A stretch of DNA of 24,722 bases from Deinococcales bacterium (GTDB lineage: Bacteria; Deinococcota; Deinococci; Deinococcales; JAAFIG01): assembly GCA_043778225.1 (NCBI GenBank), contig JAYWGM010000049.1, positions 1-24,722 of the forward strand, read 5' to 3'. The notes beneath the pieces are model-generated. The model worked only from the letters and a program-made list of their open reading frames with translations. It was not told the DNA's origin and searched no databases. The translations under genes and the position numbers were made by a program. This document shows, in pieces, positions 1 to 24,722 of the stretch (position 1 is the first letter of the stretch; each line of letters starts with the position of its first letter).

Positions 1-2
1 GG

Positions 3-155
3 GCTGGGGTGGTCACGACGCTCGAGTTTACAGCCGATTCGGACGCGGATAAACCCACCAAATTCTTATGGGCAATGAGTGCAAGTAACAACAATGATAA
101 AGCGCCTTTGTCCAAAGACCCAGCTTTTCGGATTGATTTAAGCTGCACAAAGTAA
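3..155 (+). CDS. 3' end of a CDS entering from the left edge; C-terminus of a probable secreted protein paralogous to 21506..22339
   Basis: Open frame from the edge to TAA at 153-155: AGVVTTLEFTADSDADKPTKFLWAMSASNNNDKAPLSKDPAFRIDLSCTK*. The ending DPAFRIDLSC resembles DPSLRFKLDC of the 277-aa protein. Confidence 0.7.
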   Translation, partial: AGVVTTLEFTADSDADKPTKFLWAMSASNNNDKAPLSKDPAFRIDLSCTK

Positions 156-179
156 GATTTTTTCTTCATCTCGAGCCGT

Positions 180-185
180 TAGAAT
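180..185 (+). promoter_or_regulatory. -10 element TAGAAT of a leaderless transcript
   Basis: TAGAAT lies 5 nt before ATG 191; no Shine-Dalgarno is visible. Confidence 0.65.
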
Positions 186-190
186 AATGT

Positions 191-2629
191 ATGACTTTAA
201 CGGCTCAGGCGATTCTCGAGGTGCGCTTATTTGGCGTTCCACGGCTTTTGTTGGGCAGTATGCCAATACTTTTGCCAACCAAACGCGCTTGGGGCGTGGT
301 GGCGTTCTTGGCACTCGAGGGGGCAACTTCTCGGGATAGATTAGCCAAATTACTCTGGGATGAAGCCTTTTTTGAGAACCCACGGCGCAATCTGCGCCAA
401 GAATTGTATCGCTTAGCAAAAACACCACTGGCAGATTTTCTCGAGCTTGGCGAAACCGTGAGTTTGCGTTGCTTTTGCGATGCCCGTGATGCTCGAGATT
501 CGCAAGGTTTGATTGCCGCCGACTTCCTGCTGAGGTTTGAAGTGCTACAAGCACCCAATTTTCAAAGTTGGTTACAAATGCAGCGCGAGACTTTTTCGCG
601 GCTGCGTTTAAGCCGTTTGGAAGCTCGAGCCAAGGGTTTAAGTGGTTTAGGTGCTTTAGATGCGTGGCTCGAAGTCTTGCAAGTGGATAACTTGCGTGAA
701 ACTGCGGTACAAGCCGCCCTAAGACTCGAAGCCGAACATCTTGGACTGCATACCGCTTTGTTGCGCTATCAAGACTTTAAGATGCTCTTGAAAACCGAAC
801 TTGGACTCGAGCCGCGACCAGAAACATTGGCATTGGCGCACGAATTGGGTTTAGAAACCACCAGCCTTGCTCAGCCAAAAACCGATGTTCACCTAGAACG
901 TTTACTCGAGGCAGCAAGTTTACTGACCCAACCATTTGAAGCCCAGATGCTGCTCGATGTGACTGGCTTATCCGACTTTGAGGTTTTGGAAATCCTCGAG
1001 ATTGCTACAGCTCAGGGTTTTTTGCAGCACACCGAGTCAAAATACCGAATCCTAAACAGACAAACAAATTTAAGCACCGAACGCCAACGAATTCTCGAGC
1101 GTCGGATTGCCAAGCGTTTAATCGCCATCAGCGCCGCGCCCGAAATGATTGCAGCCCATCTCGAGCAAGCTGGTGAACGGCTCGAGGCGACCGAGAAATT
1201 TTTGGAAGCCGCCGAACTGGCAGCCCGTCAAAATCGAGTTGCTGATGCTTTTACTTATTACAATAAAGTCCTCGAGCTTAGCGAAAATACCGAGCAGCGT
1301 TTTACAGTGCTGCAAACCAGAATTATCTTGGCGCGGCGTTTGGATAACCGAATTTGGCGCGAAGCGATTCGAGATTTGGAACGCGAAGCCCGCAATCGTA
1401 CTCCTGAACATCGGGTAACAGCCGATTTACAACGAGCTTTGTGGCATTTTAGCAATGCCGAATACGATAAAGCACAAGGATTTTTTGCGCCGCACCTCGA
1501 GCGAAGCGGCAAACTGGGTGCGATGGCAGCTTATCTCCAGGGAATCGTGCTGATGAAAACTGGGCAACTGAACGAATCAGAAACGTTTTTGCGCCGAGCC
1601 TTAATCGAAAAAAATGCACTCGAGGATGTCCAAACCGCCGAGGTGCATAATGTCTTGTGTGTTCTGGCAGTGCAGCGCGGACAATTTGCAGAAGCAAAAA
1701 TCCACAATCAAGCCAGCTTAAAAGGTTTTGCACGCTCTGGGCATGAACTTGGTTTAACCAGAGCCTTGTCCACGGCTGGTGTCCTCGAGATGCTGAGTGG
1801 GCAGCACCGCGCCGCAACCCGAATGTTTAAGCGTTCACTCGAGACTGCACAAAAAATTAACGATACCGCCAGTCAAATTGCGACACTCTTAAATTTAAGT
1901 AAATCCACTTTCGAGACCATGCAATTAGAAGCAAGCCGCGATTACCTCGAGCAGGGTTTGGTGTTACTCGAGACGCATCCAGACCCAAGTTTAGCGGGTT
2001 CATATTTAATTAACTTAGCGGCGATTGAACGAATTCAATTAAAATTAGATTCGGCATGGACTCGAGTTGTGACAGCGCTTGAATTGGCTACGACTCAAAA
2101 TGCCATGCCCAAAGTTGCCAGCCGAGCCTTGGTGCTGGTCAGCATGGCGCTTGAACGCCAGCGTTACGAGCTTGCCGCCCAATACCTCGAGCTTGCGGCT
2201 GAACACATCACCCCAGAATTAGAAGCTGAACTGACCTTACAAAAAGCACATTTATCGTTGCAATCAGCCCCACAGCAAACACTGGATTTACTCGAGAACC
2301 GAATTTTTACCAACGACGACCTCGAGTACCGTGTTGCCCTGATGGCATTTGCTTATTTGAAACTCGAGCAACCAAAAAAAGCCTCTGCTGTACTTGAATT
2401 AAGCGCCTCGAGTATCTATGCACCATTGGTTCAAGCGGCGCGAATTGAAATTTATGCCGCACTTGGTACACTACAGTCCAATCATTTTGAACCTATGCCG
2501 AGCAAAACCAGTCTCCCTTTTGTGCGTCATGCGCTGACTTTAGCCTTTGCCAATCACGCCCCAGAAAAACAAAAATATCGCCATACTTTGCGGCAACTCG
2601 AGACTCAATTAGCTGCTATTCTATTTTAA
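191..2629 (+). CDS. SARP/AfsR-family transcriptional regulator (OmpR-type wHTH + BTAD + TPR repeats), apparently without the central NTPase domain
   Basis: N-terminal motifs LEVRLFGVPRL, VAFLAL, SRDRLAKLLW, RRNLRQELYRL; BTAD motif DNLRETAVQAALRL...LKTELGLEPRPET; long C-terminal TPR-like helical array. Confidence 0.85.
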   Translation: MTLTAQAILEVRLFGVPRLLLGSMPILLPTKRAWGVVAFLALEGATSRDRLAKLLWDEAFFENPRRNLRQELYRLAKTPLADFLELGETVSLRCFCDARDARDSQGLIAADFLLRFEVLQAPNFQSWLQMQRETFSRLRLSRLEARAKGLSGLGALDAWLEVLQVDNLRETAVQAALRLEAEHLGLHTALLRYQDFKMLLKTELGLEPRPETLALAHELGLETTSLAQPKTDVHLERLLEAASLLTQPFEAQMLLDVTGLSDFEVLEILEIATAQGFLQHTESKYRILNRQTNLSTERQRILERRIAKRLIAISAAPEMIAAHLEQAGERLEATEKFLEAAELAARQNRVADAFTYYNKVLELSENTEQRFTVLQTRIILARRLDNRIWREAIRDLEREARNRTPEHRVTADLQRALWHFSNAEYDKAQGFFAPHLERSGKLGAMAAYLQGIVLMKTGQLNESETFLRRALIEKNALEDVQTAEVHNVLCVLAVQRGQFAEAKIHNQASLKGFARSGHELGLTRALSTAGVLEMLSGQHRAATRMFKRSLETAQKINDTASQIATLLNLSKSTFETMQLEASRDYLEQGLVLLETHPDPSLAGSYLINLAAIERIQLKLDSAWTRVVTALELATTQNAMPKVASRALVLVSMALERQRYELAAQYLELAAEHITPELEAELTLQKAHLSLQSAPQQTLDLLENRIFTNDDLEYRVALMAFAYLKLEQPKKASAVLELSASSIYAPLVQAARIEIYAALGTLQSNHFEPMPSKTSLPFVRHALTLAFANHAPEKQKYRHTLRQLETQLAAILF

Positions 2630-3573
2630 TGCTAACCATCCGCGAATTTCAGCATGGCGATTACGAGGGGCTGTCTTGGCTCGAGAACGCCCTGACTGGT
2701 GGAGAAACCAGCCCTTACGACCTTGAGCAGCGCGACCAAGCTCGAGACCCCAACCTTGGTTTTGTGCGTTTTATTGCCACTTGGGGCTGGGGCGAAACGA
2801 TTGGCATGATTGAAGCCACCCAGCGCCCAGCGCCGTGGTACTCGAGGGGCGAAGTGCGGCTTGGGGTGCGGACAGACTTCCGGCGACGGGGCATTGGCGG
2901 GGCGCTCTTGGGCGTTCTCGAGACGATACTGCGCGAGCGTGGCTCGGATGTGATGCTGCTCTACACCGGAGAATTTGATGCGGCGATCAATTATTTTTTG
3001 TGGCACAGAGGTTATGGCGAGTCGTTTCGCGGGTTTTCGCAGTGGTTGCCGCTCGAGCAGGTCAATCCAGATGCCTACCCTGTGAACTGGCAACGCCTCA
3101 ATGCTGCCGAGGTACATTTGCGTTCGCTCAGTCAATTGCGCCACGAATGGGATTGCGCTCAAAAATTTTATGAGTTGTACTTAACCCTCGAGAGTGATGC
3201 GCCTCGAGCCGATAACGAATACTTGCCGACCAGTTTTGAAGAATTCTGCCAGAATAATTTTGACAGCCCGTCTGCCTTGCCCGATGGCGTGACGATTGCG
3301 GTGCAACATGGGCAGTACATTGGACTAAACATTCTTTACCTCGACTCGAGTGGCAAGGTTCTGCACAACGGTCTGACCGGTGTGCGCCATGATTTTCGTG
3401 GGCTGGGCTTGGCATTGGCGCTTAAACTCGAAGGAATCCGCTTTGGGCAACGCCTTGGATTTTCGGGCATCACCAGTTTTAATGCCTCGAGCAACACCGC
3501 AATTTTACGGCTCAACGAAAAATTAGGGTTTATTCGCAGTCCAGCCACAATCGAATGGCGCAAGCAGCTTTAA
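2629..3573 (+). CDS. Tandem-domain GNAT N-acetyltransferase
   Basis: Two acetyl-CoA binding motifs (VRTDFRRRGIGGALL; TGVRHDFRGLGLALALK) and C-terminal NTAILRLNEKLGF; TAATG overlap with the upstream gene. Confidence 0.9.
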   Translation: MLTIREFQHGDYEGLSWLENALTGGETSPYDLEQRDQARDPNLGFVRFIATWGWGETIGMIEATQRPAPWYSRGEVRLGVRTDFRRRGIGGALLGVLETILRERGSDVMLLYTGEFDAAINYFLWHRGYGESFRGFSQWLPLEQVNPDAYPVNWQRLNAAEVHLRSLSQLRHEWDCAQKFYELYLTLESDAPRADNEYLPTSFEEFCQNNFDSPSALPDGVTIAVQHGQYIGLNILYLDSSGKVLHNGLTGVRHDFRGLGLALALKLEGIRFGQRLGFSGITSFNASSNTAILRLNEKLGFIRSPATIEWRKQL

Positions 3574-3902
3574 TTGAGTTTCTCGAGGTCTGATAAGGCT
3601 CGAGTTTCCACATCGGGCGAGATACGAGTTTCCACATCGGGCAAGATACGAGTTTCCACATCGGGCAACATCAAACTCTGTTCTGCCAAACGCGCTTCAA
3701 ACAGCACATCCACGACCCTCAGCCAACGCCCCAGCCACTCGCGCATGACTTCAGCCCGACGGGCTAAACCGATGGCTTCGAGCGCATCACAAACAATCTC
3801 GAGCCGCCCCGCCATGATTTCGGCATAACGACTGGCATCCTCGAGTTCTGTACCAAGCTCGAGTTGGGTTATTTCACAGCGAATACGATTCACCACCACC
3901 AC
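3570..3902 (-). CDS. Small hypothetical helical protein with a C-terminal 8-aa repeat (PDVETR x3); true start possibly GTG 3896
   Basis: 110-aa ORF filling the gap between two genes; -10 TAGGCT (3908-3903) is 6 nt upstream of GTG 3896. Confidence 0.6.
   Translation of the reverse strand: MVVVNRIRCEITQLELGTELEDASRYAEIMAGRLEIVCDALEAIGLARRAEVMREWLGRWLRVVDVLFEARLAEQSLMLPDVETRILPDVETRISPDVETRALSDLEKLN
3601..3668. repeat. 24-bp tandem repeat, about 2.8 copies (CGAGTTTCCACATCGGGCRAGATA)
   Basis: Units start at 3601, 3625 and 3649 and are in frame in the minus-strand ORF. Confidence 0.9.
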
Positions 3903-4003
3903 AGCCTACAATAAAGCCAGACTTGACAAAAGCAAATTGTGTCGCCAAAGACCCAGTGTGCAAATCCGCGCCATAAAATCCAATTCTCGAGTAAACTAGG
4001 TCT

Positions 4004-5254
4004 GTGCCTGCCAGCCCCCTCGAGCAACTGACCCAAATCGCTTCTTTGCTGCCACCACAAGTGGGCAGTCGGGTGCGTACCATTGCCCGTGAACTCGAGG
4101 CAGAGCGCAGTGCGCTGACCGCATTTCAAAGCCTTGGCATGAAACTCAGTGGGGTGCGCGATTCTTTTGATGTGATTACGCTTTTTCAAGATATGCTGAC
4201 CGAAGCCGTGCGCCTGATGCAAGCCGACCGTGGAGCGCTTGCCTTGGTCGAAGATGGGGCAGTGCGAGTGGTGGACAGTTGCTCCAAAGATTCGCATGAA
4301 GAAGTTCAGGTCTCGAGAACATTGCTTGAGCGGGTCGTGACCACCAAGCAAAGCATCATCACCACCAATGTCCAAGAAGAGATGGGACACAGCGCCTCGG
4401 AAAGCATTTTGGCACTTGATATTCGCAGTGTCTTGGCAGTCCCACTCCGCGCCCGAGACGATGTGATTGGGGTTTTATATGTGGATACGCAGTTCACCCA
4501 AAGGGCTTTTACCGAATCCGACTCGAGTATTCTTAACGGCTTTGCGGCACAAGCTGGCGTGGCTGTTACCCTAGCCCGAAGTATTCAACAAGAACACGAA
4601 AATTATGTCAGTTTGGTCAAGACGATGTTGTCCACACTCGAGGCTCGAGACGAGTACACCGCCGGTCATTCGGATAGGGTCGGTTTTTATACCAAAAAGT
4701 TAGCAGAAAGACTGGGCTGGGCTGCTGCTGACCTCGAGCGAGCCTTATTTGCTGGCTTTGTTCACGACATCGGCAAAATTGGCATCCGCGATGTCTATTT
4801 GCACAAAACTGGAAATCTCAGCCCCGAAGAACGCAAAATTCTCGAGCAACATACTGTGATTGGCGAAAAGCTACTTCGCAACAACACCAAAGGTTTTGAA
4901 GGGATTCTGTCTTCAATTCGCTCGCACCACGAACGCTGGGATGGCACGGGCTACCCCGATGGATTATCTGGCGAGACCATTCCGCTACTGGCGCGTATGG
5001 TTGGCATTTCCGATGCCTTTGATGCCATGACCACTGCCCGCCCCTACAGCACCCCAAAATCTTGGGAACAAACCTTTGAAATTTTGACCAAGGACATCGG
5101 TACACATTTTGACCCTTTCCTTGTGCCGCTTTTTATCGAAGCCCTGTCCGACGAAAAAGTCTCCAATGCCGTTTTGGAAATGAACCGAAGCGGCGAACTC
5201 GACCGCAATGTGATTGCGACTTTGATTGCCCAACACGACATAAAAGCAGGGTAA
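4004..5254 (+). CDS. GAF + HD-GYP domain phosphodiesterase (putative c-di-GMP PDE)
   Basis: GAF motif IRSVLAVPLRARDDVIGVLYVD; HD-GYP motifs EARDEYTAGHSDRV, HDIGKI, HHERWDGTGYPDGL, DAFDAMTTARPY; leaderless -10 TAAACT at 3992-3997. Confidence 0.92.
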   Translation: MPASPLEQLTQIASLLPPQVGSRVRTIARELEAERSALTAFQSLGMKLSGVRDSFDVITLFQDMLTEAVRLMQADRGALALVEDGAVRVVDSCSKDSHEEVQVSRTLLERVVTTKQSIITTNVQEEMGHSASESILALDIRSVLAVPLRARDDVIGVLYVDTQFTQRAFTESDSSILNGFAAQAGVAVTLARSIQQEHENYVSLVKTMLSTLEARDEYTAGHSDRVGFYTKKLAERLGWAAADLERALFAGFVHDIGKIGIRDVYLHKTGNLSPEERKILEQHTVIGEKLLRNNTKGFEGILSSIRSHHERWDGTGYPDGLSGETIPLLARMVGISDAFDAMTTARPYSTPKSWEQTFEILTKDIGTHFDPFLVPLFIEALSDEKVSNAVLEMNRSGELDRNVIATLIAQHDIKAG

Positions 5255-5356
5255 AAAAGGCAGGGTAAAAAGGGGAAAAGGACAAAAGGTTAAATCACTT
5301 TACTTTTGACCTTTTCACCCTTTGACCTTTTCACCCTTTGACCTTTTCACCCTGCC
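5246..5356. repeat. Intergenic short tandem repeats with terminal inverted repeat between convergent genes (probable terminator hairpin)
   Basis: TTTGACCTTTTCACCC x3 at 5305-5352; GCAGGGTAAAAA x2 at 5246 and 5260; GGCAGGGTAAAAAGG (5259-5273) pairs 14/15 with CCTTTTCACCCTGCC (5342-5356). Confidence 0.8.
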
Positions 5357-5361
5357 CTTCT

Positions 5362-6237
5362 TCACTGCCAGACGCGCAGGGCTTTGAGGCTCGAGCCGTC
5401 GCCGTCGGCAATCGCAATCAGAACGCCTTCATGGGTTATGGTCAGCCGCCCTTGGTCTTGGCTCGAGATTCGTTTGCCGTCTTTGAGGTCTCGGGCGGCT
5501 TTGGCGTTCAATTCTAAAACTGGGTACTCGAGGGCGGTTAAATCTGACAGTCCAAGGCTTGACTCAAGTTGCTCGAGCGAGGTGGCTTGGGACAGGTTAA
5601 ATTTGCCGACTCGAGTCCGCACCAAACCACCCAAATGCGCCACTGTGCCAAGTGCAAGACCAATATCTCGGGCAAGGCTGCGAATGTATGTGCCACTCGA
5701 GACACTAATTTCGAGTTTGAGGGTAGCAAAATCACCTAAGGCTTGGGGGAAATTGGCTCGGTCACGCATGGTTGGCAGTGTCTCGAGGTAGCGCAAAACC
5801 GAAATAGTTACCGCTCGAGGCTCGAGTTTGACTTCTTTTCCAGCCCTTGCGAGGTCGTAGGCACGTTGTCCGTTGATGTGAATGGCGCTGTAATCTGGCG
5901 GAAGCTGCATCAGTTGTCCCCGAAATTGCTGCAAGACTTGCTCCAGGTGGGCTGGATTAAATTCTGGGACTGGTTTTTGCTCGAGAATTGGTCCCTCGGC
6001 ATCGAGGGTTGGGGTACTTGCGCCAAGGCTGATAAACCCCAAATAATCTTTATCGGCAATCTCGAGGTACGGCACAAGTTTGGTGCTTTCGTTGGTCAGC
6101 AGCACCAGTACGCCAGTTGCCAGTGGGTCGAGTGTTCCAGTGTGTCCGATGCGTTTTGTACCAAGTAACTTTCTGGCTCGTGCCACAACATCAAACGAAG
6201 TCCAACCCAAGGGTTTATCCACAATAAAAACAGCCAC
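5362..6237 (-). CDS. truB: tRNA pseudouridine(55) synthase TruB
   Basis: Motifs DKPLGWTSFDVV, GHTGTLDPLATGVL, PPDYSAIHINGQRAYDLAR, SSGTYIRSLARDIG; leaderless -10 TAAGAT 5 nt upstream. Confidence 0.97.
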   Translation of the reverse strand: MAVFIVDKPLGWTSFDVVARARKLLGTKRIGHTGTLDPLATGVLVLLTNESTKLVPYLEIADKDYLGFISLGASTPTLDAEGPILEQKPVPEFNPAHLEQVLQQFRGQLMQLPPDYSAIHINGQRAYDLARAGKEVKLEPRAVTISVLRYLETLPTMRDRANFPQALGDFATLKLEISVSSGTYIRSLARDIGLALGTVAHLGGLVRTRVGKFNLSQATSLEQLESSLGLSDLTALEYPVLELNAKAARDLKDGKRISSQDQGRLTITHEGVLIAIADGDGSSLKALRVWQ

Positions 6238-6275
6238 ACTGCATCTTAACCCTCAAATCAAGGCTATACTTTGGT

Positions 6276-7445
6276 ATGAAATGGTTTCTGGGCATGGCAG
6301 CATTGGCATTTGGCGCTTTGGCGCTTGGAGAATCTGTTTCGGTGGTGCGTTTAGCTGTAGCCGCGCCACTGTCGGGTGGACAAGCCAAGACCGGCAACAC
6401 GATTCGTGATGGCGCACGGTTGGCAGTCCAAGAAGCCCAAGCCCGATTTACAAAACTTGGCTTAAAACTCGAGTTTATCGCCATGGATGACCAAGGTGTT
6501 CCAGCCACAGGGGCAGTCGTGGCAAGAAAATTGGTTCAGGATGCCAGTGTGCTGGGTGTGGTCGGTCATATGAACAGTGGTGTAACACTCGAGACCTTAC
6601 CAATTTATGCCCCGAGCAACTTAGCCCTTGTTTCGCCCTCAAACACCAATCCTCGAGTCACCGACCAAGGTTTAGCCAACATCAACCGAGTCTGTGGGCG
6701 CGATGATGTCCAAGGACCTGTGGCTGCCGAATTTATTCGCAGTACCTTAAAAGCACGGCGGGTGCTGGTGATTAACGATGGCGAAGCCTATGGGCTTGGA
6801 ATTACACAGGCATTTACAAAACGTGCCAAAACACTCGGTTTAGCAGTGGTGGGGTTTATCAGTAATCCTGTTGGTGTCCTGAGCAGCCAATCTTTAAGCG
6901 CCGTGACGCAACAAATTAAACTCTATAACCCAGAAGTGGTCTATTATGGCGGCACAGAGGTACAAGGCGCAGAAATTATCAAGATGATGGTGGCGAGTAA
7001 AGTTAAAGCGCTTATGGTTGGACCAGATGGCTTGGACAATTCTAATTTTGTGCAAACGGCTGGAGCGGCGGCGGCGGGAGTCTATTTTACGTCGACGGCG
7101 GGTCCAATTTCGCAGTTGCGCGGGCGCGATGTCAAAGGCTTTGTAAGTCGCTATAATACTATTTTTAAGACCAACCCAGAAACCTATTCGCCCTATGCTT
7201 ACGATGCTGCTTCGATGTTGCTCGAGGCAATCAGCACCATTTACAAAAACAATAAAAAACTGCCAACTCGAGCCGAGGTTGCCTTAGCAGTGCGTGGTCT
7301 CGAGTGGGATGGCGTGACTGGTCGGATTCGCCTCAATGCCAATGGCGACCGCCAGACAGCCGATTATTATGTTTTGCAGTACAAAACCGCCAAATACCCC
7401 GGCGAGATTGTCAAAGCCATTCAGAGCGCTCCGCCAACCAAGTAA
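6276..7445 (+). CDS. Branched-chain amino acid ABC transporter substrate-binding protein (LivJ/LivK family)
   Basis: Signal peptide; motifs APLSG, VVGHMNSGV, RVCGRDDVQG, AYGLG, YAYDAA; leaderless -10 TATACT at 6265-6270. Confidence 0.9.
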   Translation: MKWFLGMAALAFGALALGESVSVVRLAVAAPLSGGQAKTGNTIRDGARLAVQEAQARFTKLGLKLEFIAMDDQGVPATGAVVARKLVQDASVLGVVGHMNSGVTLETLPIYAPSNLALVSPSNTNPRVTDQGLANINRVCGRDDVQGPVAAEFIRSTLKARRVLVINDGEAYGLGITQAFTKRAKTLGLAVVGFISNPVGVLSSQSLSAVTQQIKLYNPEVVYYGGTEVQGAEIIKMMVASKVKALMVGPDGLDNSNFVQTAGAAAAGVYFTSTAGPISQLRGRDVKGFVSRYNTIFKTNPETYSPYAYDAASMLLEAISTIYKNNKKLPTRAEVALAVRGLEWDGVTGRIRLNANGDRQTADYYVLQYKTAKYPGEIVKAIQSAPPTK

Positions 7446-7447
7446 AA

Positions 7448-7475
7448 TTGCCCTCGGCTTTGTTGATGTTACAAT
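7448..7475 (+). promoter_or_regulatory. Sigma-70-type promoter for the redoxin-like gene
   Basis: TTGCCC-16 nt-TACAAT with extended TG; SD AGGAGA before ATG 7499. Confidence 0.55.
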
Positions 7476-7498
7476 GCTTGGGTTTTATAAGGAGATTT

Positions 7499-8008: not shown

Positions 8009-8175
8009 CCAGCCTAATTTTAGGGGTGGCACTGTTGGGTTTTGGGATTTTTTACTTTGCGATGCTCCCCAAAGTGCCAGCCGTGCAAAAAAATATGATG
8101 CGAATTTTGGCGGCGGTCAACACCGTTGGCGGCATTGCGGTTCTAACAATGGTGATGCTTGGTATCATGAAATAG
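8005..8175 (+). CDS. Small 56-aa membrane protein with two hydrophobic helices (not in ORF track)
   Basis: ATGA overlap with the redoxin stop; MTSLILGVALLGFGIFYFAMLPKVPAVQKNMMRILAAVNTVGGIAVLTMVMLGIMK*. Confidence 0.75.
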   Translation: MTSLILGVALLGFGIFYFAMLPKVPAVQKNMMRILAAVNTVGGIAVLTMVMLGIMK

Positions 8176-8235
8176 GCTCGAACTTAGGCGCTACAAAGCC
8201 CCTTTTGCTAAAGTTAATGCTTAGTGGCTCGAGAA

Positions 8236-8280: not shown

Positions 8281-8282
8281 CT

Positions 8283-14417: not shown

Positions 14418-14436
14418 AAAAACAGTTTAACACGTA

Positions 14437-16236: not shown

Positions 16237-17868
16237 GTGAAACAACTTGTACTTCGTTTTGTTCTGTCTTTGGCTTTTCTTGGCGTTGCCCAAGCCCAAA
16301 CCCTGCCCAAAGAAACCCGCACCCGCATTATTCAGTCGGTGGTCGAGGTCTTGGCACTCGAGAACGACTCTGGCATACCACGCCTTGGCAGTCAGGGTGG
16401 CAGTGGCACAATCATCAGCAGCAGTGGCTACTTACTGACCAATTACCATGTGATTTTTGACGATGAAACAGGCAAGGAAATTAAACGCCATGCGATTCGT
16501 TTTACCGATAACCCGACCAAAGAACCTATTCTTAAAGGCATTGCCACGATTGCCATGACCATACCCAAACTCGACTTGGCACTCTTAAAAATTACTCAAG
16601 ACGAAAAAGGCAATCCAATCTCGAGCAGCGCAAAATTTGTGGCTTCGCCCGTTGGCAATCCATTTGACATGGTGCTGGGCGAACATTTAACCATTGCGGG
16701 CTATCCAGACATTGGTGGACGCACAATTACCTTTACAACTGGCGTTTTTAGTGGTTGGACGGCCGAAAATAACCGTGGGGCTGGCACGAATTGGATTAAA
16801 ACCGATGGCAAAATCTCGAGTGGCAACTCTGGCGGTGGTGCATTTGATGAACAAGGATTTTTGGTCGGTGTGCCAACGGCTGGAATCTCGAGACGGGTCA
16901 GCCAGAACTTAACCGAATCGCAAAATTATTTGCGCCCGATTCATTTGGCTTACCAATTATTCGATGCTCAAGTGCCAGATGTACTCTGGGCGGGAAATCG
17001 CCGCCCTGTTGTTCCCGCCGATGTGGATGCCACTGGTTTGGTCATCCCAATTGTAGCTGGTGGTTTGTTGCCCGCCAAGTCAGGGCAAACTTGGAGCATG
17101 ACCATTGAAGGGCTACCAACTTGGACTTTAAGCCTAACGCGCCTAGACCAAGACGGCGACCCGACCGGCACAGCCAACCAAGCTGGCAGCAGCCAACCGT
17201 TTATTGCTTATGCTTACGAAGACGATGGCTTATTTTATTTTCATGTTGAATCGCAACGCAACGAAGCCTTTGCTTGTACTTTTGAAGACCCGATTACCGC
17301 TAAAGATGGTCTGCTGTCCGAAGGTGAAGCCCTCAACAGTCCCCCAGACGCGGACAACTGGCGCAGCCTGAACCGCAGTTGTAGTGTTCGGTTAGGCAAC
17401 GCCGCAACAATAGCAATAGCCGCCCCACCAGTCAGCGCCGACCCACCAAAGGCTGGTGGCACACTGGCAGCTGCTTTCCCGCCCAAGCCGGGGCAAACTT
17501 GGACAGTCACGATCGAAGGACTTTCGCCGTGGACCCTCGAGTTCAAAAACCTAGATAAAGATGGTGACCCCGAAGGCACGGGTCGTCAAGGCACTTTTAG
17601 TGCGGCGGCTTTTGCCTTTACCGACGACGAGAACTCGAGGGTCTTTCAGTTTTTTGGTGCAAATGGCGGCTATTGGTGTGTTTTCCAAAAAAATGCAGCC
17701 TTGAATGGGGCTGGCGAAGCCTATTTCCGAGCCACTGGTCAGCAAACACCCAGCAAAATGAACCGCACTTGTGGCGCAAACTTGGTTGGGGCTGGCGGCA
17801 CAACTTTTAGTAAGCTCGAGCCACAAGAATTCTTTAAGTTGATAAAATTCAGCCATTTGGCATACTGA
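16237..17868 (+). CDS. Secreted trypsin-like (S1) serine protease with two tandem C-terminal accessory domains
   Basis: Signal peptide ending AQA; catalytic triad motifs TNYHV, DLALL, GNSGG; SD GGAGG. Confidence 0.9.
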   Translation: MKQLVLRFVLSLAFLGVAQAQTLPKETRTRIIQSVVEVLALENDSGIPRLGSQGGSGTIISSSGYLLTNYHVIFDDETGKEIKRHAIRFTDNPTKEPILKGIATIAMTIPKLDLALLKITQDEKGNPISSSAKFVASPVGNPFDMVLGEHLTIAGYPDIGGRTITFTTGVFSGWTAENNRGAGTNWIKTDGKISSGNSGGGAFDEQGFLVGVPTAGISRRVSQNLTESQNYLRPIHLAYQLFDAQVPDVLWAGNRRPVVPADVDATGLVIPIVAGGLLPAKSGQTWSMTIEGLPTWTLSLTRLDQDGDPTGTANQAGSSQPFIAYAYEDDGLFYFHVESQRNEAFACTFEDPITAKDGLLSEGEALNSPPDADNWRSLNRSCSVRLGNAATIAIAAPPVSADPPKAGGTLAAAFPPKPGQTWTVTIEGLSPWTLEFKNLDKDGDPEGTGRQGTFSAAAFAFTDDENSRVFQFFGANGGYWCVFQKNAALNGAGEAYFRATGQQTPSKMNRTCGANLVGAGGTTFSKLEPQEFFKLIKFSHLAY

Positions 17869-17893
17869 CAAAAGCCTGCCCAACCAGTACAAT
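17865..17893 (+). promoter_or_regulatory. Sigma-70 promoter of ssrA
   Basis: CTGACA-17 nt-TACAAT, ending about 30 nt upstream of the mature 5' end. Confidence 0.75.
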
Positions 17894-17924
17894 AGCAAAG
17901 CATCTGAATATCGGGTGTCACCGT

Positions 17925-18296
17925 GGGCGCGTACTTGGTTTCGACAGGGACTGCTGAAGGTGTGGTTGCGAGCCGCAGATGGTGGTTGGCTGCGAAAAAA
18001 TCCACCAAGCCTTTAACTGGCACAAATGTTTTGAAAATGGGCGCACGCGCTCCATTAGCACTGGCTGCTTAATTCAGCCAAAGCCGCTTAGAGACCCGGC
18101 AGTTGGTGTCTAACCCGCTTAATCATAGACTGCTAGTTTTGGTCATGCCTCATAACCAAATACGAAAATAATGAGGATGCTGCAACAACAACCTGCCTTT
18201 GGGTTCGTTTAGCAAAAGATTAGTATAAAGGCTACGCTCGTAGATGCCCACTGAACGGGTTTTTGGACGAGGGTTCGACCCCCTCCGCGTCCACCA
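17925..18296 (+). ncRNA. ssrA: tmRNA; predicted tag (A)GTNVLKMGARAPLALAA* at 18019-18072
   Basis: 5' GGGCGCG pairs with 3' CGCGTCC-ACCA with a G3-U alanine wobble; 5' GGTTTCGAC motif; 3' GGACGAGGGTTCGACCCCCTC T-arm; TAACT before the resume codon; tag ends ALAA-TAA. Confidence 0.96.
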
Positions 18297-18334
18297 AAAG
18301 AAAAGCTCGAGGCAAACCTCGAGCTTTTTTCTTT
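18297..18334. terminator. Bidirectional intrinsic terminator after ssrA
   Basis: AAAAGCTCGAGG-CAAA-CCTCGAGCTTTT followed by a T-rich tail. Confidence 0.9.
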
Positions 18335-19625
18335 ATTGCAGATTGCTGATGTCTATTTCGGCACTTCTCGAGTTATGCCAAGCCAAACGTAATTTTTTTG
18401 GCTGAATACCTTTTTCGACTTCAATCAATGCCCGTAAGAGCAGTTCTTGGTTGGGTTGTAACTCGACACTCAGGCTTGTATCGCGGTTAGCAAAGTAGCT
18501 CCAGTCCGAGATTCGACTCGAGATGCCGTCTTGGTCAAGAAACGACAGATTAGAAAGCCCCCCATAAATACCAATTGGCGATTTAAGGGTGTTCTTGACC
18601 GTAAAATAGACCACCATCCAACGCCCACCTTCTGGCGCGGTACTGCCATCAAACCACGGGGCGGTGCTGTACTCAACCCGTTCGAGCTTAAAATTGGTGC
18701 GTCCAGGATAATAGACTCCATACTGGGCTGGAAAAAATAACAGCGCAGTCGAGCCATCGGTCACGTTCGGGTCGGCAAATGGGGCTGGAATTGGCGCAAC
18801 TTTACCGCGCAAGTCGTAGCGCCAAACCGCGCCGTTGCAGTCGTCCACAATCATCTTAGGCAGACTCACATCTCTGTCCATGATGATACGGGTATAGATG
18901 CTGATTTTTTGGGCTGGGCGTAAATTGATGCTGACCGAGCGCATTGTACCTTGTTCGTACCAGTAGCTTTCCGCTTCGACATTTTGATTTTTGGAATCCA
19001 CCCCCGAAAAACGAATTTTCGTGCCAGAAACATAGATTTCGCCTTTGGTCGGATTTTGCACCGTCGCATAAATAAGCAAGGCTTTTTTACTCGAGTCAAG
19101 CAAATCGTCTTTTTCGCCACCATCGTATAAATAATTACCAATACTGTACTCGAGTTTGGTGATGGAGTAATTGATGGCAGTATCCAGCCCCTTGCAGAGC
19201 GTATATGTTTGCCCCAGAACGCCCTCGCCGCCGCTTTGCTGGGTTGTGCCTTGGATACTTGGGGCGTTGGTGACTGGAGTGGCTGGACTCGAGATGGTGA
19301 TGGTGCTGCCCGAAACACTGGCAGTTAATCCTAAACCTTTGGCGACATCCAAGGCTGGAGCATAGGCAACATCTTTTTGCAGTGCAACTGGCACTTTAAT
19401 GGTTTTAGCGTTGCGGCTAAAAGTGGCGGTTTTACCCTTTAAGTCAAGGCTGATATTCGAGCCAATCGCGGCGGCATAAGGCTTACTCGAGAGTGCCAGT
19501 TTACCCGCCACGACCACACCCGCGAGGCTAGTGGATTTGCCAGCAAAAACAACTTTGTAAGACGTTTGCGCCAGTGCGATGGCTGCCAGAGATAGACCCA
19601 AGACCAACAAAGCTATTTTTTTCAT
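18333..19625 (-). CDS. Secreted hypothetical protein (AMIN/stalk-like N-terminus, two Ig-like DUF4352-type domains)
   Basis: Signal peptide ending ALA-Q; two similar segments (LLIYATVQNPTK...SINLRPAQKI and MVVYFTVKNTLK...SVELQPNQEL); SD AGGAG. Domain names come from pattern only. Confidence 0.75.
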   Translation of the reverse strand: MKKIALLVLGLSLAAIALAQTSYKVVFAGKSTSLAGVVVAGKLALSSKPYAAAIGSNISLDLKGKTATFSRNAKTIKVPVALQKDVAYAPALDVAKGLGLTASVSGSTITISSPATPVTNAPSIQGTTQQSGGEGVLGQTYTLCKGLDTAINYSITKLEYSIGNYLYDGGEKDDLLDSSKKALLIYATVQNPTKGEIYVSGTKIRFSGVDSKNQNVEAESYWYEQGTMRSVSINLRPAQKISIYTRIIMDRDVSLPKMIVDDCNGAVWRYDLRGKVAPIPAPFADPNVTDGSTALLFFPAQYGVYYPGRTNFKLERVEYSTAPWFDGSTAPEGGRWMVVYFTVKNTLKSPIGIYGGLSNLSFLDQDGISSRISDWSYFANRDTSLSVELQPNQELLLRALIEVEKGIQPKKLRLAWHNSRSAEIDISNLQ

Positions 19626-19647
19626 TCGAGAACTCCTTTTGATTAGT

Positions 19648-21429
19648 TTAACTCAAAATCTGATTTCTCGAGTCGGTTTCACGAAACTGCATTTCAAAAA
19701 GGTCTTTGTAGAGTCCAGCACTGCTTAAAAGTTCAGAATGCGTTCCGATACTCGAGATTCGCCCATGTTCTAAAACCGCAATTCTTGAGGCATTTCGCAC
19801 CGTACTCAAGCGGTGGGCAATTACAAAAGTAGTGCGCGATTTCATTAGTCGCTCGAGGGCTTCTTGCACCAAAAATTCAGATTCGTTATCTAGGGCGCTG
19901 GTGGCTTCATCAAGAATTAGAATCCGTGGGTTTTTAAGAATCGCTCTGGCAATCGCAATGCGCTGACGTTGCCCGCCCGATAACTTCATACCACGCTCAC
20001 CGACCACGGTAGCAAACCCCTGCTCGAGTTTTTCGATAAACTCTAGGGCATTGGCAGCTTTGGCGGCGGCTTCTACTTGGGCATCGGTGGCTTCGGCTCG
20101 ACCATAGCGAATATTTTCGAGAATACTGCCACTAAACAACTGGGTTTCTTGTGGCACAATCCCAATTTGACTCCGTAAATCAGACAACTTGAGTTGGCGA
20201 ATATCCACGCCATCCAAACGAATAACCCCGTGGCTTAAATCGTAAAAACGCGGTATCAGGCTAACCAAGGTACTCTTGCCCGCGCCACTTGTACCAACCA
20301 GTGCCAGCACCTCGCCGGCTTTGACTTCTAGGTTAATGTTCTCGAGAACTGGTGTTTCTCGAGAAGTATACTTAAAACTGACATTCTCGAATTGCACTCG
20401 CCCTTGCACGGCTACAAGTTCTTGGGGTTGCAATGGCTCGAGTAAATCGCTTGGCATTTCAAGGATTTCAAAAATTCGGCTTGAAGCGCCAAGGGCTTCT
20501 TGAAATTGGGTAAAAATTCCACTTAGGCTTGCCATTGCGGTAGACAACCCAAGGGCATAAAACATAAAACTAATCAGCGCCCCAGGCGTTAAATTACCCT
20601 CAAACGCCAAGCGCCCACCGTACCACAAGACAAAACCCAAGCCCGAAAAAGCAATAAAAAGCATGGTTGAGCCAAATGCCGAATTGAGGGCATTGCGTTT
20701 CATGGCGGTGCTAAAAGTGGCTTCGATACCAGTGCCGTATTTTGTGCGCTCCAGCAATTCGTTGGTAAAAGACTGCACCACACGAATATTGGTCAGGGCT
20801 TCTTCGGCGCTGGCATTGGCAGCGGCAATTTTATCTTGGACTTCTTTGGAGAGTTTACGCACTTGTCGCCCAAAAAAAATCGCACCAAAAACAATAAATG
20901 GCGTAACCAATAAAGTCACCAATGCCAGTTTCCAATTGGTCACAAACATCATCACCGCACTGCCAAATAAAGAAATGGTCTGGCTTAGCCCGTTGGCTAA
21001 AGCGCTCGAGGCGACAGTCTGGACAGTGGCAGCATCTGAAGTCAGACGCGAAGTCAGTTCGCCGACCTTACGGCTTTCAAAAAAACCACTCGAAAGCGAT
21101 AACAAATGCTGATACACGGTGCGCCGTACATCACGCACCACACTACTGCCAACAAAGGCTAAACCGTAAGACTGAGCCGCACTAAAAATACCCTGTCCTA
21201 ATGCCACCAGCACCAGTAAAACAACCACGCGGTCAAGTTCGGCGGTGTCTTTGCTGGCTAAATTCAAAAAACTTGCATCCACCAAGCGCCCAAGCACCTG
21301 TGGAAAAACCAAACCCAGCCCACTCGAGACCAAGGTGGCTAAACCCGCCAAAACCAAGACCCAGCGGTATGGCTTAGAAAAACGCATCAGGCGAGGGAAT
21401 TGACCAACCGATTTTTTAGCATCCAACAC
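19648..21429 (-). CDS. ABC transporter fused permease/ATP-binding protein (MsbA/ABCB-type exporter)
   Basis: TM domain; Walker A GTSGAGKS; Q-loop VPQE; signature LSGGQRQR; Walker B ILILDEATSALD; switch IAHRL. Confidence 0.95.
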   Translation of the reverse strand: MLDAKKSVGQFPRLMRFSKPYRWVLVLAGLATLVSSGLGLVFPQVLGRLVDASFLNLASKDTAELDRVVVLLVLVALGQGIFSAAQSYGLAFVGSSVVRDVRRTVYQHLLSLSSGFFESRKVGELTSRLTSDAATVQTVASSALANGLSQTISLFGSAVMMFVTNWKLALVTLLVTPFIVFGAIFFGRQVRKLSKEVQDKIAAANASAEEALTNIRVVQSFTNELLERTKYGTGIEATFSTAMKRNALNSAFGSTMLFIAFSGLGFVLWYGGRLAFEGNLTPGALISFMFYALGLSTAMASLSGIFTQFQEALGASSRIFEILEMPSDLLEPLQPQELVAVQGRVQFENVSFKYTSRETPVLENINLEVKAGEVLALVGTSGAGKSTLVSLIPRFYDLSHGVIRLDGVDIRQLKLSDLRSQIGIVPQETQLFSGSILENIRYGRAEATDAQVEAAAKAANALEFIEKLEQGFATVVGERGMKLSGGQRQRIAIARAILKNPRILILDEATSALDNESEFLVQEALERLMKSRTTFVIAHRLSTVRNASRIAVLEHGRISSIGTHSELLSSAGLYKDLFEMQFRETDSRNQILS

Positions 21430-21505
21430 CCGATATTCATACCATGCGCGTCACACCACAATCGCCAAAAAATGTGAGAAAATACACCAATTCATAAGGA
21501 GTCCT

Positions 21506-22339
21506 ATGCGCCCGATTTGGTTGGTAATCGCAATAATCTTGGTTGGTGGAGCAATTGCTCAAACTACTTTTAAGCTCGTGATTAACGGCAAAACCGCCTC
21601 AAGTGGCTGGATTAACCTTAACGGCAAAGTCTATCTTCCGCTCGAGGCTTTACAAAAAGCTGGGGTCAGCGCCAAAAAATCTGGCAACACTTATACCTTG
21701 ACGCTGCCAAAAATCGCCAGCCCAACGCCAAAACCTGTCGTTACACCAAAACCAGTCACCACGGTCACTGTCCCAAAACCAGTCACCACGCCAATTTCAC
21801 CCATCAGCCCGATTGCACCTGTTGCACCTGTTGCACCTATCAGCCCACCAGTCAATCCGATTCTTGGGGTCAATACCTCGAGTGGCAGTATTAAAATCGT
21901 GGTCAGCAATGCCAATAAACCTCTGCTCGAGGGGTGCAGTGGTCAAAGCCTAAACAATGGTGTCTGGCTGATGCGGATATTAAATTTTGCACCACTCATC
22001 CGTGACAGCAAAGTTGGTTACTTGGTGACGCTCGAGTACAGCAATATCTCGGTCAATGCTTTATCTTTATTCGATACCGGTTTTAGCGATGGTGAAGGTG
22101 GCGCAGGCAATTTCACGCTGCAATTACAAGAAAACAGCACCTTGGCTTCAAGCAACACCGAAGCTGGCTTTTTATACAACATTGTTCAGCCAAACAGCAA
22201 AGCCAGTGTGGACATCTTTTTTTTAACTAACCAAACCAGTCTGCCAACCCCGCAACGTTTTACCGTCGGACAAGAACGCCGTGTGGCTGGCTTTACGGTC
22301 TCTGACCCAAGCCTGCGCTTTAAGCTCGATTGCCGATGA
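21506..22339 (+). CDS. Secreted hypothetical protein with stalk-like N-domain, Pro/Thr-rich linker and two-Cys C-terminal domain
   Basis: Signal peptide ending AIA-Q; NGKVYLPLEAL motif; TPKPV/PISP/VAP repeats; SD AAGGAG. Confidence 0.8.
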   Translation: MRPIWLVIAIILVGGAIAQTTFKLVINGKTASSGWINLNGKVYLPLEALQKAGVSAKKSGNTYTLTLPKIASPTPKPVVTPKPVTTVTVPKPVTTPISPISPIAPVAPVAPISPPVNPILGVNTSSGSIKIVVSNANKPLLEGCSGQSLNNGVWLMRILNFAPLIRDSKVGYLVTLEYSNISVNALSLFDTGFSDGEGGAGNFTLQLQENSTLASSNTEAGFLYNIVQPNSKASVDIFFLTNQTSLPTPQRFTVGQERRVAGFTVSDPSLRFKLDCR

Positions 22340-22791
22340 GACTGCATATGATTACGGTTGGCACGCCAAAACTCGAGTATGCCCAAATTGGCTGCCAAAT
22401 GTACAGCACACGGCTTGAGCGTTTTCATAAAGTCAGGTTTACGCGGGTACGTGACAGCAAAAAGTCTGGCGAAGCCGCCATGCTCGAGGAAGGACAAGCA
22501 ATCCTCGAGACGGTTGGCAAAGCCTATTTATTTGCGCTTGACCCAAACGGGCGGCAACTCGAGACTCCAGCCCTTGCCCAAAAACTCGAGCAATTAGGCG
22601 TAGATGGACACGGCGAACTGGCATTTTGCATTGGCGGCGACGAAGGGCTGTCTGATGCTGTCAAAACTCGAGCCGACAGTTTGTGGAGTTTAAGCCAACT
22701 GACTTTTCCGCATGACCTAGCGCAGTTGGTGCTGCTTGAGGCTTTGTACCGTGCCAGTACGATTAACGCTGGGGTTAAATACCACAAATAA
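22336..22791 (+). CDS. rlmH: 23S rRNA (pseudouridine1915-N3)-methyltransferase RlmH; start ATG 22336
   Basis: Motifs ITVG, FCIGGDEGL, SLSQLTFPHDLA, LLEALYRASTI, YHK; ATGA overlap with the upstream gene. Confidence 0.95.
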   Translation: MRLHMITVGTPKLEYAQIGCQMYSTRLERFHKVRFTRVRDSKKSGEAAMLEEGQAILETVGKAYLFALDPNGRQLETPALAQKLEQLGVDGHGELAFCIGGDEGLSDAVKTRADSLWSLSQLTFPHDLAQLVLLEALYRASTINAGVKYHK

Positions 22792-22879
22792 GCAGCACTG
22801 GCTTTGAATAGATTAAAATCATGAAACCCAACAGCATTCCATTTCGAGCCAAAATTGCACCTTTTGGTTGCGTCATAGC

Positions 22880-22915
22880 TTGACAAGATGAGTCAAAAAA
22901 CCAATATGCTAGAAT
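22880..22915 (+). promoter_or_regulatory. TA operon promoter with palindromic operator
   Basis: TTGAC-N7-GTCAA palindrome (22880-22896); extended -10 TGcTAGAAT 6 nt before ATG 22922. Confidence 0.55.
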
Positions 22916-22921
22916 CTTCGT

Positions 22922-23146
22922 ATGACCCTAACGCTAAATCTCAAACCACAACTTGAGCAACAACTCGAACAAGCTGCCAGAAAAAAAGGTGTAACACTCG
23001 AGGAATTGCTCGAACAAGACCTCGAGCAGCGCTGGTTAATCCCAGACCCATTAGCACAGTTCTCGAGCATTGGCTTAGGCGAATCCGATTTAAATGCCAA
23101 AGATAGTAAGGCTTGGCTTAAAGAACAATGGAATAAAGTATTGTGA
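22922..23146 (+). CDS. Putative VapB-type antitoxin (RHH/CopG-like)
   Basis: MTLTLNLKPQLEQQLEQAARKKGVTLEELL beta-alpha-alpha pattern; C-terminal IGLGES motif; GTGA overlap with the PIN gene. Confidence 0.8.
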   Translation: MTLTLNLKPQLEQQLEQAARKKGVTLEELLEQDLEQRWLIPDPLAQFSSIGLGESDLNAKDSKAWLKEQWNKVL

Positions 23147-23538
23147 CACTCGACTCAAGTGCCATTTTTGCTTTGTTGAACAGTAAAGACCTAGACCATA
23201 CTCGTATCAGAATGGCATTGTCCAAGCATCGTCCACCGTTTATTGTTGCAACCGCAGCCCTTGCCGAAATTTCGTACATGATCGAAACTCGTCTTGGCTT
23301 TTATGTCTTGGATGCTTTCCTCAGCGACATTGAATTGGGCTTATTTCGTTTAGATTTTCGTGAATCAGATATACCTCGAGCGCGAATTTTGGCACGTCGT
23401 TATCAAGACCTATCTTTGGGTTTAGCTGATGCGTTAATTATCGCCTGTGCTGAACGAAACGGTGGAAAAGTGATGAGTTTAGATCAACATTTTTGGATTG
23501 TATCCAATGAAGGATTTATCACTGTCGAATCATTATGA
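23143..23538 (+). CDS. PIN-domain VapC toxin
   Basis: Motifs LDSSAIFAL, LAEISY, LGLADA, SLDQHF (PIN acidic residues). Confidence 0.9.
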   Translation: MTLDSSAIFALLNSKDLDHTRIRMALSKHRPPFIVATAALAEISYMIETRLGFYVLDAFLSDIELGLFRLDFRESDIPRARILARRYQDLSLGLADALIIACAERNGGKVMSLDQHFWIVSNEGFITVESL

Positions 23539-23616
23539 TTTTTGACCTCGCAATGTGGCTCGAGCAGCTTTGTTTTATGACTGGAATTTGAGCAGCCTTT
23601 TCGAGTACATTAAAGC

Positions 23617-24663
23617 ATGAACGCCAACATTTCTGCCCCATCTCGAGCCATGCCCATTGGTCGCGCCCGCGTAAGTTGGACAGACAACCTGATTACCATT
23701 GCTCTTGGCTTGTGGCTGATTGCGGGGGTTTTTATAGACGGGTTCGCCCACAGTAACCTGCGCGGCAGCATCGAAAGTTTTTTTACGCCTTGGCACGCGA
23801 TTCTTTATGCTGGCTTTAGCGTTTCGGCACTTTGGACAATGTGGTTGGTGTATGGTCAAATTCGCCTCGGGCGAACTGGTTTTGCCGCCATTCCGATTGG
23901 TTACGAATTGGGTTTACTTGGCATTGGTATTTTTGGACTGGGTGGCATCGGCGACATGATTTGGCATTCGGTTTTTGGCATCGAAGTTGGCAATGCCGCG
24001 CTGCTCTCCCCTACCCACCTGATGCTGCTGTGTGGCGGTACGTTATTGGTCACAAGTCCGTTGCGTTCAGGTTGGGCTACCCTTGGTTACGCCCCCAAAT
24101 TCCTCGAGTTTTTGCCTGTGCTTTTGAGTAGTTTTGCAGCCCTAAGTTTTGCAACATTTTTCCAATTGCACGCTTGGGGTTTAACCAATGTGCCAGATGG
24201 CAATAATTATATGAATTGGATTGGCGGCATTCGCGGTAGTACCTCGTTTAACATCGCTTCTAATTTTGCAAACATGGGCATTTTATTCAGCAATGTGATT
24301 CTACTTGCGCCTATCTTGCTGCTGTTACGGCGCTGGAAAACCCCATTTGGCACGTTCACCATCATGTTTACACTCAACACCATCGGTATGACCGTGATTG
24401 GTGGCTCGGTTCATTGGCAAGCCGTCATTGCCATGGCAGTCTCAGGATTATTTGCCGATGTCTTCATTGCCAAATTCAACCCTTCGGTCAAGCACATTCT
24501 CGAGTTTCGGGCTTTGGCGACTCTGCTGCCTGTATTTATTTGGGGAACCCATTTTTTAGTGCGGCATTTACGCGAAGGCATTGCGCTCGAGCTTGAATTC
24601 TGGACTGGCACAATAGTCATGGCAGTAGGGCAAACGCACCAAGTTGAGCTTGCTGTACCCTAA
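23617..24663 (+). CDS. Multi-pass membrane protein of unknown function; C-terminus probably replaced by IS sequence after 24625
   Basis: Many TM helices with paired motifs DGFAH, ESFFTPWH, DMIWH, LLSPTH; leaderless -10 TACATT; the last 12 codons lie inside the IS end. Confidence 0.8.
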   Translation: MNANISAPSRAMPIGRARVSWTDNLITIALGLWLIAGVFIDGFAHSNLRGSIESFFTPWHAILYAGFSVSALWTMWLVYGQIRLGRTGFAAIPIGYELGLLGIGIFGLGGIGDMIWHSVFGIEVGNAALLSPTHLMLLCGGTLLVTSPLRSGWATLGYAPKFLEFLPVLLSSFAALSFATFFQLHAWGLTNVPDGNNYMNWIGGIRGSTSFNIASNFANMGILFSNVILLAPILLLLRRWKTPFGTFTIMFTLNTIGMTVIGGSVHWQAVIAMAVSGLFADVFIAKFNPSVKHILEFRALATLLPVFIWGTHFLVRHLREGIALELEFWTGTIVMAVGQTHQVELAVP

Positions 24664-24722
24664 AGAATGATTATCAATATCATCGAACATTTCAGTACCC
24701 TCGAAGACGCTCGTCGTGACCA
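24626..24722 (+). mobile_element. Left end of an ISAs1-family insertion sequence (partial)
   Basis: TAGGGCAAACGCA resembles the (C)AGGGCAAxCGCA terminal IR I recall for ISAs1 elements; it is followed by an ORF with an ISAs1-like N-terminus. Confidence 0.75.
24667..24722 (+). CDS. ISAs1-family transposase, N-terminal fragment running off the window
   Basis: MIINIIEHFSTLEDARRD matches the EHFSxLxDPR start typical of ISAs1 transposases; -10-like TACCCT 5 nt upstream. Confidence 0.72.
   Translation, partial: MIINIIEHFSTLEDARRD

Follow-up and report, generated by a model that had tools for sequence, protein, structure and literature searches.

A genome-wide iterated palindrome, CTCGAG, in an uncultured Deinococcales family, with AddAB as its possible reader

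The stretch of DNA analyzed here, called the window, is 24,722 nucleotides long and comes from a Deinococcales bacterium (GCA_043778225.1, contig JAYWGM010000049.1, positions 1-24,722), and the element in question is the six-base palindrome CTCGAG, which is dispersed through it together with the other features collected in Table 1. An earlier note on the window had put the number of sites at about 175, with 38 in the first 3.6 kb and about 6 expected; the exact counts are 175 and 38, and the expectation is 5.9 under an order-0 model, 3.2 under an order-1 and 12.7 under an order-2 Markov model. The source genome, designated G000 (4.03 Mb in 107 contigs, 48.7% G+C, 89% complete), contains 24,877 copies, i.e., 6.17 per kb or about 1 per 160 bases, with observed/expected ratios (O/E) of 27, 48, and 15 under the same three models. 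All 107 contigs carry the word, at 4.0-10.6 per kb, and among the 64 six-base palindromes in G000 it is the top and sole strongly over-represented one. No conserved extension or longer consensus was seen in the flanks of the G000 sites. Contigs of two read runs cover window positions 1-20000, and most of the long pieces among those listed show no differences; both runs are flagged as a possible source of the assembly and are not independent of it.

Table 1. Features of the window and their coordinates.
Feature	Position	Strand	Remarks
Dispersed CTCGAG, 175 copies	21..24591 (first at 21, last at 24586)	.	all frames of use and spacers; 7.1 per kb
truB	5362..6237	-	anchor for placing the organism and fetching relatives; nearest named matches are 'Deinococcales bacterium' metagenome-assembled genomes, 74-80% identity
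RCC1-like repeats in 694-aa gene (8283-10367)	8431..9242	-	TTC TCG AG (Phe-Ser-Ser) at 8431, 8599, 8764, 9082, 9235; variant TTCTCAAG at 8932-8939
tmRNA gene without CTCGAG	17925..18296	+	tmRNA call and site count

The reported absence of sites from the tmRNA body was borne out (0 sites), which says little taken alone; across G000, the 68 tRNA and tmRNA genes hold 5 sites against 34 expected. Four of these five belong to a single cluster (G000:C19:9937-14171; L339), where 26 tRNA genes follow one another on the same strand. The tag peptide of the tmRNA was called as GTNVLKMGARAPLALAA, which exceeds the usual tag length. Genes of low G+C are poor in sites: where G+C is below 36%, the density is 0.5 per kb, and such islands contain the longest gaps between sites. 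One-transition variants of CTCGAG do recur, as had been remarked, and the effect is modest, 1.4-1.5 times the order-1 expectation across G000. The example given for them, in which five RCC1 repeats read TTCTCGAG and a sixth carries the variant listed in Table 1, was found in the sequence.

The excess could be thought to be created by codon, dicodon, or amino-acid bias or by an assembly artefact, given that coding DNA holds 91% of the sites and that 60% of those stand in the Leu-Glu frame. In the G000 gene set, for which a simple dicodon score yielded 3,728 genes, the sites fall into 13,278 Leu-Glu, 4,434 x-Arg-x, and 4,556 x-Ser-Ser/Arg frames, all three frames being used as in the window. The density is 6.2 per kb in coding and 5.8 per kb in non-coding DNA, where 2,247 copies were observed and 73 expected. 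Shuffling of synonymous codons left about 1,840 copies compared to the 22,268 observed, a 12-fold excess. Where the protein permits it, the word is used at 69% of the Leu-Glu places and at 56 and 43% of the places in the other two frames; while 69% of Leu-Glu pairs are written CTC GAG, CTC makes up 9% of Leu codons and GAG 22% of Glu codons elsewhere. Together with the presence of the word in 19 of 19 assemblies of the family, these data contradict bias and artefact alike, which we reject as virtually impossible causes; the claim that codon bias alone does not explain the word stands, and the excess does not vanish when codon usage is controlled. In addition, no amino-acid pair is over-used as strongly as Leu-Glu (O/E 2.32, as against 0.97 for Glu-Leu), which suggests that CTCGAG has changed protein sequences.

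Neither is the word confined to this contig. All 19 genomes of the family (57-94% complete) have 4.3-6.8 CTCGAG per kb, and the other 203 genomes sampled from the order reach at most 3.5 per kb. Densities in genus g9 are 0.6-1.6 per kb, and all 61 genomes of family f3 have at most 0.27 per kb, both being approximate values from rounded genome sizes; judging from genome sizes and named proteins, f3 is probably mainly Deinococcus, g9 Thermus, and g13, a further genus compared below, Meiothermus. CTCGAG is a strong compositional marker for this uncultured Deinococcales family.

The force that acts on the word was estimated from six genomes of g5, a genus of the same family, with about 14% pairwise difference, using 60 regions at 12 anchors and alignments of 110 kb covered by at least three genomes. 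Pairwise comparison found the CTCGAG site in both genomes in 81% of coding cases (n = 8,936) and in 79% of non-coding ones (n = 930), whereas for all hexamers the value was 43-44%. Two-state fits to synonymous classes showed that CTCGAG is favoured over its one-base variant in 17 of 17 classes, at 26- to 848-fold in 16 of them and 5.8-fold in the seventeenth, and the loss ratio was below 1 in every class. In the best-powered class, sites were lost at 0.13 (0.08-0.24) and gained at 7.5 (5.0-14.0) times the background rate. Fixation bias alone would predict a loss of 0.07 and a gain of 4.1; the observed rates are higher by a factor of about two or more, which could be due to uneven background rates and to segregating variants. 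In non-coding classes the word is enriched 19- to 185-fold over its variants. All six positions are affected by transitions and transversions, the variants made by transversion being no less disfavoured than those made by transition, and a half-site by itself brings no advantage (GTC GAG/GAA, 0.6; CTT GAG/GAA, 0.9). Parsimony gave 237 synonymous losses where 527 were expected (138 against 322 under a stricter rule), while non-synonymous losses ran at background without suppression (84 against 93 expected) and the intergenic figures were unstable (35 against 60, or 24 against 26); the 12 polarised gains are too few for use. Given the deficit of synonymous losses, a mutational pump that only gains sites is rejected for synonymous positions. 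Site-directed repair of nearby mismatches is rejected as well, since four-fold divergence is flat, at 0.32-0.38 at every distance from CTCGAG, as it is around control words. A selection-like force on the whole hexamer keeps and regains complete sites. The avoidance of TTCGAA shows the same loss/gain signature as the retention of CTCGAG, and G000 avoids other palindromes as well: 32 of the 64 six-base palindromes lie below 0.1 of their first-order expectation, GGCC occurs 131 times against about 20,900 expected, and GRCGYC, GGSCC, and RCATGY are nearly absent.

Neighbouring sites repel each other. Near pairs are disfavoured, with an O/E for both being used of 0.19-0.39 at 8-13 bp, and permutations within 1,597 genes gave ratios of 0.42 at 7-13 bp, 0.62 at 14-20 bp, 0.86-0.88 at 21-45 bp, and 0.96 at 61-90 bp. 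Gaps are more even than in these permutations and long gaps are under-represented. A logistic model of the neighbour effect on 32,135 opportunities put the drop in log-odds at 1.4 (7-13 bp), 0.36 (31-45 bp), 0.12 (91-120 bp), and 0.05 (161-220 bp); the effect is symmetric up- and downstream, follows roughly 1/distance from 10 to 160 bp, and is gone past 220 bp. Short-range repulsion is also seen in g5 loci, and it requires two complete sites, since a site next to a near-site with five of the six bases shows no deficit at 10-20 bp. No clear signal of helical phasing was detected in the spacing at distances up to 3 kb.

The earlier note had inferred that a methyltransferase or repair process, a DNA-uptake signal, or a chromosome-organising protein maintains the motif. 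In the first of these, following Elhai's model, an orphan methyltransferase would mark CTCGAG and methylation-directed or very-short-patch repair would make and keep the sites. Active orphan N6-methyladenine (m6A) methyltransferases for CTCGAG are indeed reported from Marinithermus hydrothermalis, Meiothermus chliarophilus, and M. ruber in the available text of PMC4752239, and enzymes outside the searched families, or missing from the incomplete family genomes, would escape. Searches with PF00145, PF01555, PF02086, PF07669, PF02384, and PF05063 covered G000, the five best genomes, and 19 or 41 relatives; in these six Pfam families, and with genomes that are incomplete, no methyltransferase common to the whole family was found. 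G000 has many methyltransferases, most of them beside nuclease-like genes. The single-contig family member G013 gave no N4/N6 beta-class match, and its one C5 and two D12 enzymes are not shared with G000 or G006, nor did its MT-A70 gene match in the four other genomes searched; three N6-type matches of type I/IIG size were left out of this comparison. The TaqI-like methyltransferase of G025, which is named as a Marinithermus protein and is close to M.TaqI, had strong matches in 4 of 41 genomes, none of them in the family, where the 19 genomes gave no close match and one weak match (E 5e-9). Of 221 genomes sampled from the order, 20 encode an XhoI/PaeR7I-like methyltransferase; the family itself gave a single weak match, and in genus g13 the 5 carriers average 2.11 CTCGAG per kb compared to 2.20 in the 16 others. 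Family searches and pairwise enzyme comparison gave patchy, mostly nuclease-linked genes, and a cognate methyltransferase was set aside as an improbable candidate.

Neither a Vsr nuclease nor a nuclease of the XhoI family was found in the 19 incomplete family genomes; the BsoBI family had no match anywhere, controls included, so that this search is uninformative. NucS was not found in G000 and was strong in 1 of 7 congeners, yet it is present in the motif-poor f3; strong matches occur in 1 of 8 genomes of genus g1 (G000-G007) and in 11 of 11 in the rest of the family. NucS and Vsr were both rejected as drivers, their presence not tracking CTCGAG. Moreover, all mismatch types are affected rather than one, and synonymous divergence is flat with distance from the sites. 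Very-short-patch repair, with its Vsr nuclease and its bias for T:G mismatches only, does not resemble what is seen at CTCGAG, because all positions are affected by transitions and transversions and half-sites have no advantage. The proposed methyltransferase- or Vsr-driven process thus found no support, and we consider methylation-based upkeep of the sites very unlikely; CTCGAG probably acts as a signal that a DNA-processing enzyme, possibly AddAB, recognizes, and not as a methylation mark.

In the second proposal, CTCGAG would be a DNA-uptake signal: a receptor at the pilus tip or in the periplasm would prefer it, and biased uptake with recombination would raise its frequency, as happens with established uptake sequences and has been proposed for HIP1, the highly iterated palindrome of cyanobacteria. 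The whole-word specificity and the short-range footprint suit such a signal, the competence machinery is present, with ComEC intact in 5 of 5 family genomes and ComEA and DprA recognized in G000 by motif and reading, and a 2026 study ties HIP1 to competence genes in its available text (PMC13756078). G000 also encodes a 1,107-aa PilX-N protein accompanied by three minor pilins, whose predicted model matches Thermus ComZ (Z 13.6; root-mean-square deviation 11.4; 365 aligned) and which has homologues in 14 of 18 other family genomes. However, family members share only 40-52% identity in this ComZ-like protein, the same query gave no match in the motif-rich G009, G010, G013, and G015, and the competence genes match in the D. 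radiodurans control as well. No PDB sequence match was obtained for it, and Foldseek returned only E 0.023. Its locus (G000:C86:6151-11597; L338:1151-6597) evolves fast and has few CTCGAG, 9 in 5.4 kb, and the protein is twice the size of Thermus ComZ. Weighing these points, we regard an uptake signal as unlikely. An abundant dimeric nucleoid or chromosome-organising protein that binds duplex CTCGAG, each bound site bringing a small fitness gain, is the remaining proposal. A dimer would go well with a palindromic site, repulsion peaks at distances below about 20 bp and requires that both sites be complete, and HIP1 has been tied to chromosome structure in the available text of PMC5861425. On the other hand, the analysis turned up no candidate protein, the stretch 20-100 bp upstream of start codons shows no shortage of sites, the repulsion tail reaches about 200 bp, and helical phasing is not clear; such a protein is, in our judgment, distinctly unlikely.

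Our preferred reading, held tentatively and with chances a little short of even, is that CTCGAG is a palindromic Chi-like signal with AddAB, which the earlier note did not name, as the candidate reader. AddAB would digest the ends of broken or of incoming DNA as far as a CTCGAG and would then pass the end to recombination. An allele with the site would be recombined in or spared more often, through biased conversion and selection for short resection. Both directions would add up because the word reads alike from both sides, which could explain an excess above that of ordinary Chi sites, and a site beside another site would add less, matching the observed repulsion. G000 has an intact AddA-like gene (G000:C79:31168-33813) and an intact AddB-like gene (G000:C32:43473-45914, 813 aa), both with many close homologues. 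The two genes are unlinked, on different contigs, addB directly following a recN-like gene, and their products score below the NCBIfam cut-offs of the Gram-positive models; in a metagenome locus (L372) addA adjoins addB. A metagenome scan by AddA alignment gave 80 loci, all distant (23-41% identity; median CTCGAG O/E 1.4), and served only to find AddB. In the available text of PMC9751324, Thermus thermophilus has AddAB, its deletion strongly raises natural transformation, and the authors' reading is that the enzyme degrades incoming DNA; in that of PMC6300522, only one among 11 species of Deinococcus is credited with RecB/AddA. On the T. thermophilus plasmid pTT27 (L455 and L457, 70 kb), 64 of 76 TCGA lie inside CTCGAG (odds ratio 38) and TCGA is otherwise avoided, so that Thermus is not a counter-example. 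The corresponding counts are 25 of 40 in g9 loci, 4 of 118 on plasmid MP1 (30 kb) of D. radiodurans, a species without AddAB, and 6 of 100 in g7 loci.

Several observations weigh against an AddAB reader. AddB of G000 is very divergent, giving a weak match to Bacillus subtilis AddB (E 0.005, residues 2-220). Three deep-branching deinococci, Deinobacterium chartae, Deinococcus cellulosilyticus, and D. roseus, have named AddA homologues; they may be among the 61 sampled f3 genomes, all of which are motif-poor. The TCGA counts for Thermus and Deinococcus come from one plasmid each; g8 loci (25 kb) show no preference, with 25 of 185 TCGA in CTCGAG (odds ratio 0.9), f2 loci (73 kb) show little (odds ratio 1.3), and Meiothermus phage MMP17 is ambiguous (2.6 CTCGAG per kb; odds ratio 1.2). 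The repulsion, too, fits imperfectly. It lies mostly within 30 bp, while a rough expectation for shielding from random breaks is at least 160 bp; it is weaker in non-coding DNA (3.7 against 6.5 per 1,000 at 8-13 bp, with the deficit absent at 21-30 bp), and inverted pairs of other hexamers also show a mild dip at 8-12 bp, so that a hairpin cost may explain part of it. Finally, known Chi sites are non-palindromic, show orientation bias, and are read as single-stranded DNA, and the palindromic form suggests a dimer on duplex DNA. A viral scan for three close CTCGAG sites, which returned at least 129 stretches, was uninformative, none of the 30 most enriched matching G000 proteins. A bolder version of the AddAB reading, which we find doubtful, is that the word would be the first palindromic Chi, an unmethylated self signal for the AddAB of Deinococcota throughout the order, which would propagate through biased repair and through control over incoming DNA, would rewrite the proteome, and would have disappeared together with AddAB in Deinococcus.

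Some further features of the window deserve mention. A short open reading frame (ORF) region at 3570-3902 on the minus strand contains imperfect tandem repeats reading PDVETR, and small length differences between contigs occur at about 3641-3643. In the spacer that separates the HD-GAF gene from truB, a short element (5255-5366; compare position 18377) shows high depth and joints elsewhere, which suggests a dispersed intergenic repeat. Genes of toxin-antitoxin type lie at 14437-15142 and 23143-23538; one encodes a helix-turn-helix (HTH) protein and is preceded by a small ORF, and the other encodes a PIN-domain protein.

A cause for the word would be testable by experiment, as the same preference is seen on the pTT27 plasmid of T. 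thermophilus HB27, which is naturally competent and for which addAB deletions are published. If AddAB is the reader, CTCGAG would supply the Chi of Deinococcota, so far unidentified, and a practical handle on transformation; if it is a palindromic Chi, the whole class of highly iterated palindromes could be traces left by end-resection enzymes. Structures of B. subtilis AddAB with Chi exist. As with the Chi of AddAB and RecBCD, the word is short and over-represented, AddA and AddB are present and conserved, and motif-poor Deinococcus mostly lacks the enzyme; it differs in being palindromic, free of strand skew, and much denser, and in the shorter (813 aa), very divergent AddB, and its own Chi-like activity is putative. 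Since it is a perfect palindrome whose half-sites have no advantage, we do not class CTCGAG as a Chi site, and Chi-like working is offered as a proposal only.

Comparable words are the DNA uptake sequences of Neisseria and Pasteurellaceae and the methylated RAATTY of Campylobacter. Like these, CTCGAG is a genome-wide word that skews peptide usage in genomes with competence genes; unlike them, it has six bases, no extended consensus, and no known receptor or conserved methyltransferase. The orphan m6A enzymes of Marinithermus and Meiothermus share the hexamer and the order (Blow et al., 2016, PMC4752239, available text), and they are patchy and were not found in the family searched. In Nocardia, according to the same text, CTCGAG clusters at the origin, whereas in G000 it is genome-wide.

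The closest likeness is to HIP1, whose function, to our knowledge, is still unproven after three decades. Both HIP1 (GCGATCGC) and the alternate cyanobacterial HIPs are likewise dispersed palindromes, found in genes and spacers and in all frames and conserved more than codon usage requires (PMC4390886, PMC5861425, and PMC13756078, available text), with HIP1 sites conserved between genomes in parallel to CTCGAG (Xu et al., 2018, PMC5861425). CTCGAG belongs to another phylum, has another sequence, and lacks a flank extension; it is not HIP1 proper, the host being Deinococcales and CGATCG being depleted in G000 (182 copies). At 6,170 per Mb, it is two to twenty times denser than HIP1, for which the available text of PMC4390886 gives 300-2,700 per Mb. 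That text also gives one or more cognate methyltransferases in every HIP genome and four strains without a CGATCG enzyme (Elhai, 2015), a rule that appears to fail here because the searches of these incomplete genomes gave neither a methyltransferase common to the family nor an XhoI nuclease or a Vsr. In the literature covered, with most subscription papers and Elhai's supplementary tables lying outside that scope, we found no account of CTCGAG being over-abundant in Deinococcota. The HIP-like reading of the earlier note holds, in that the palindrome is dispersed, genome- and family-wide, and conserved beyond codon needs. CTCGAG is over-represented, dispersed, and conserved between genomes, the descriptive features of the HIP class, and this denser case in another phylum, apparently without a conserved methyltransferase, separates an iterated palindrome from a methylation mark.

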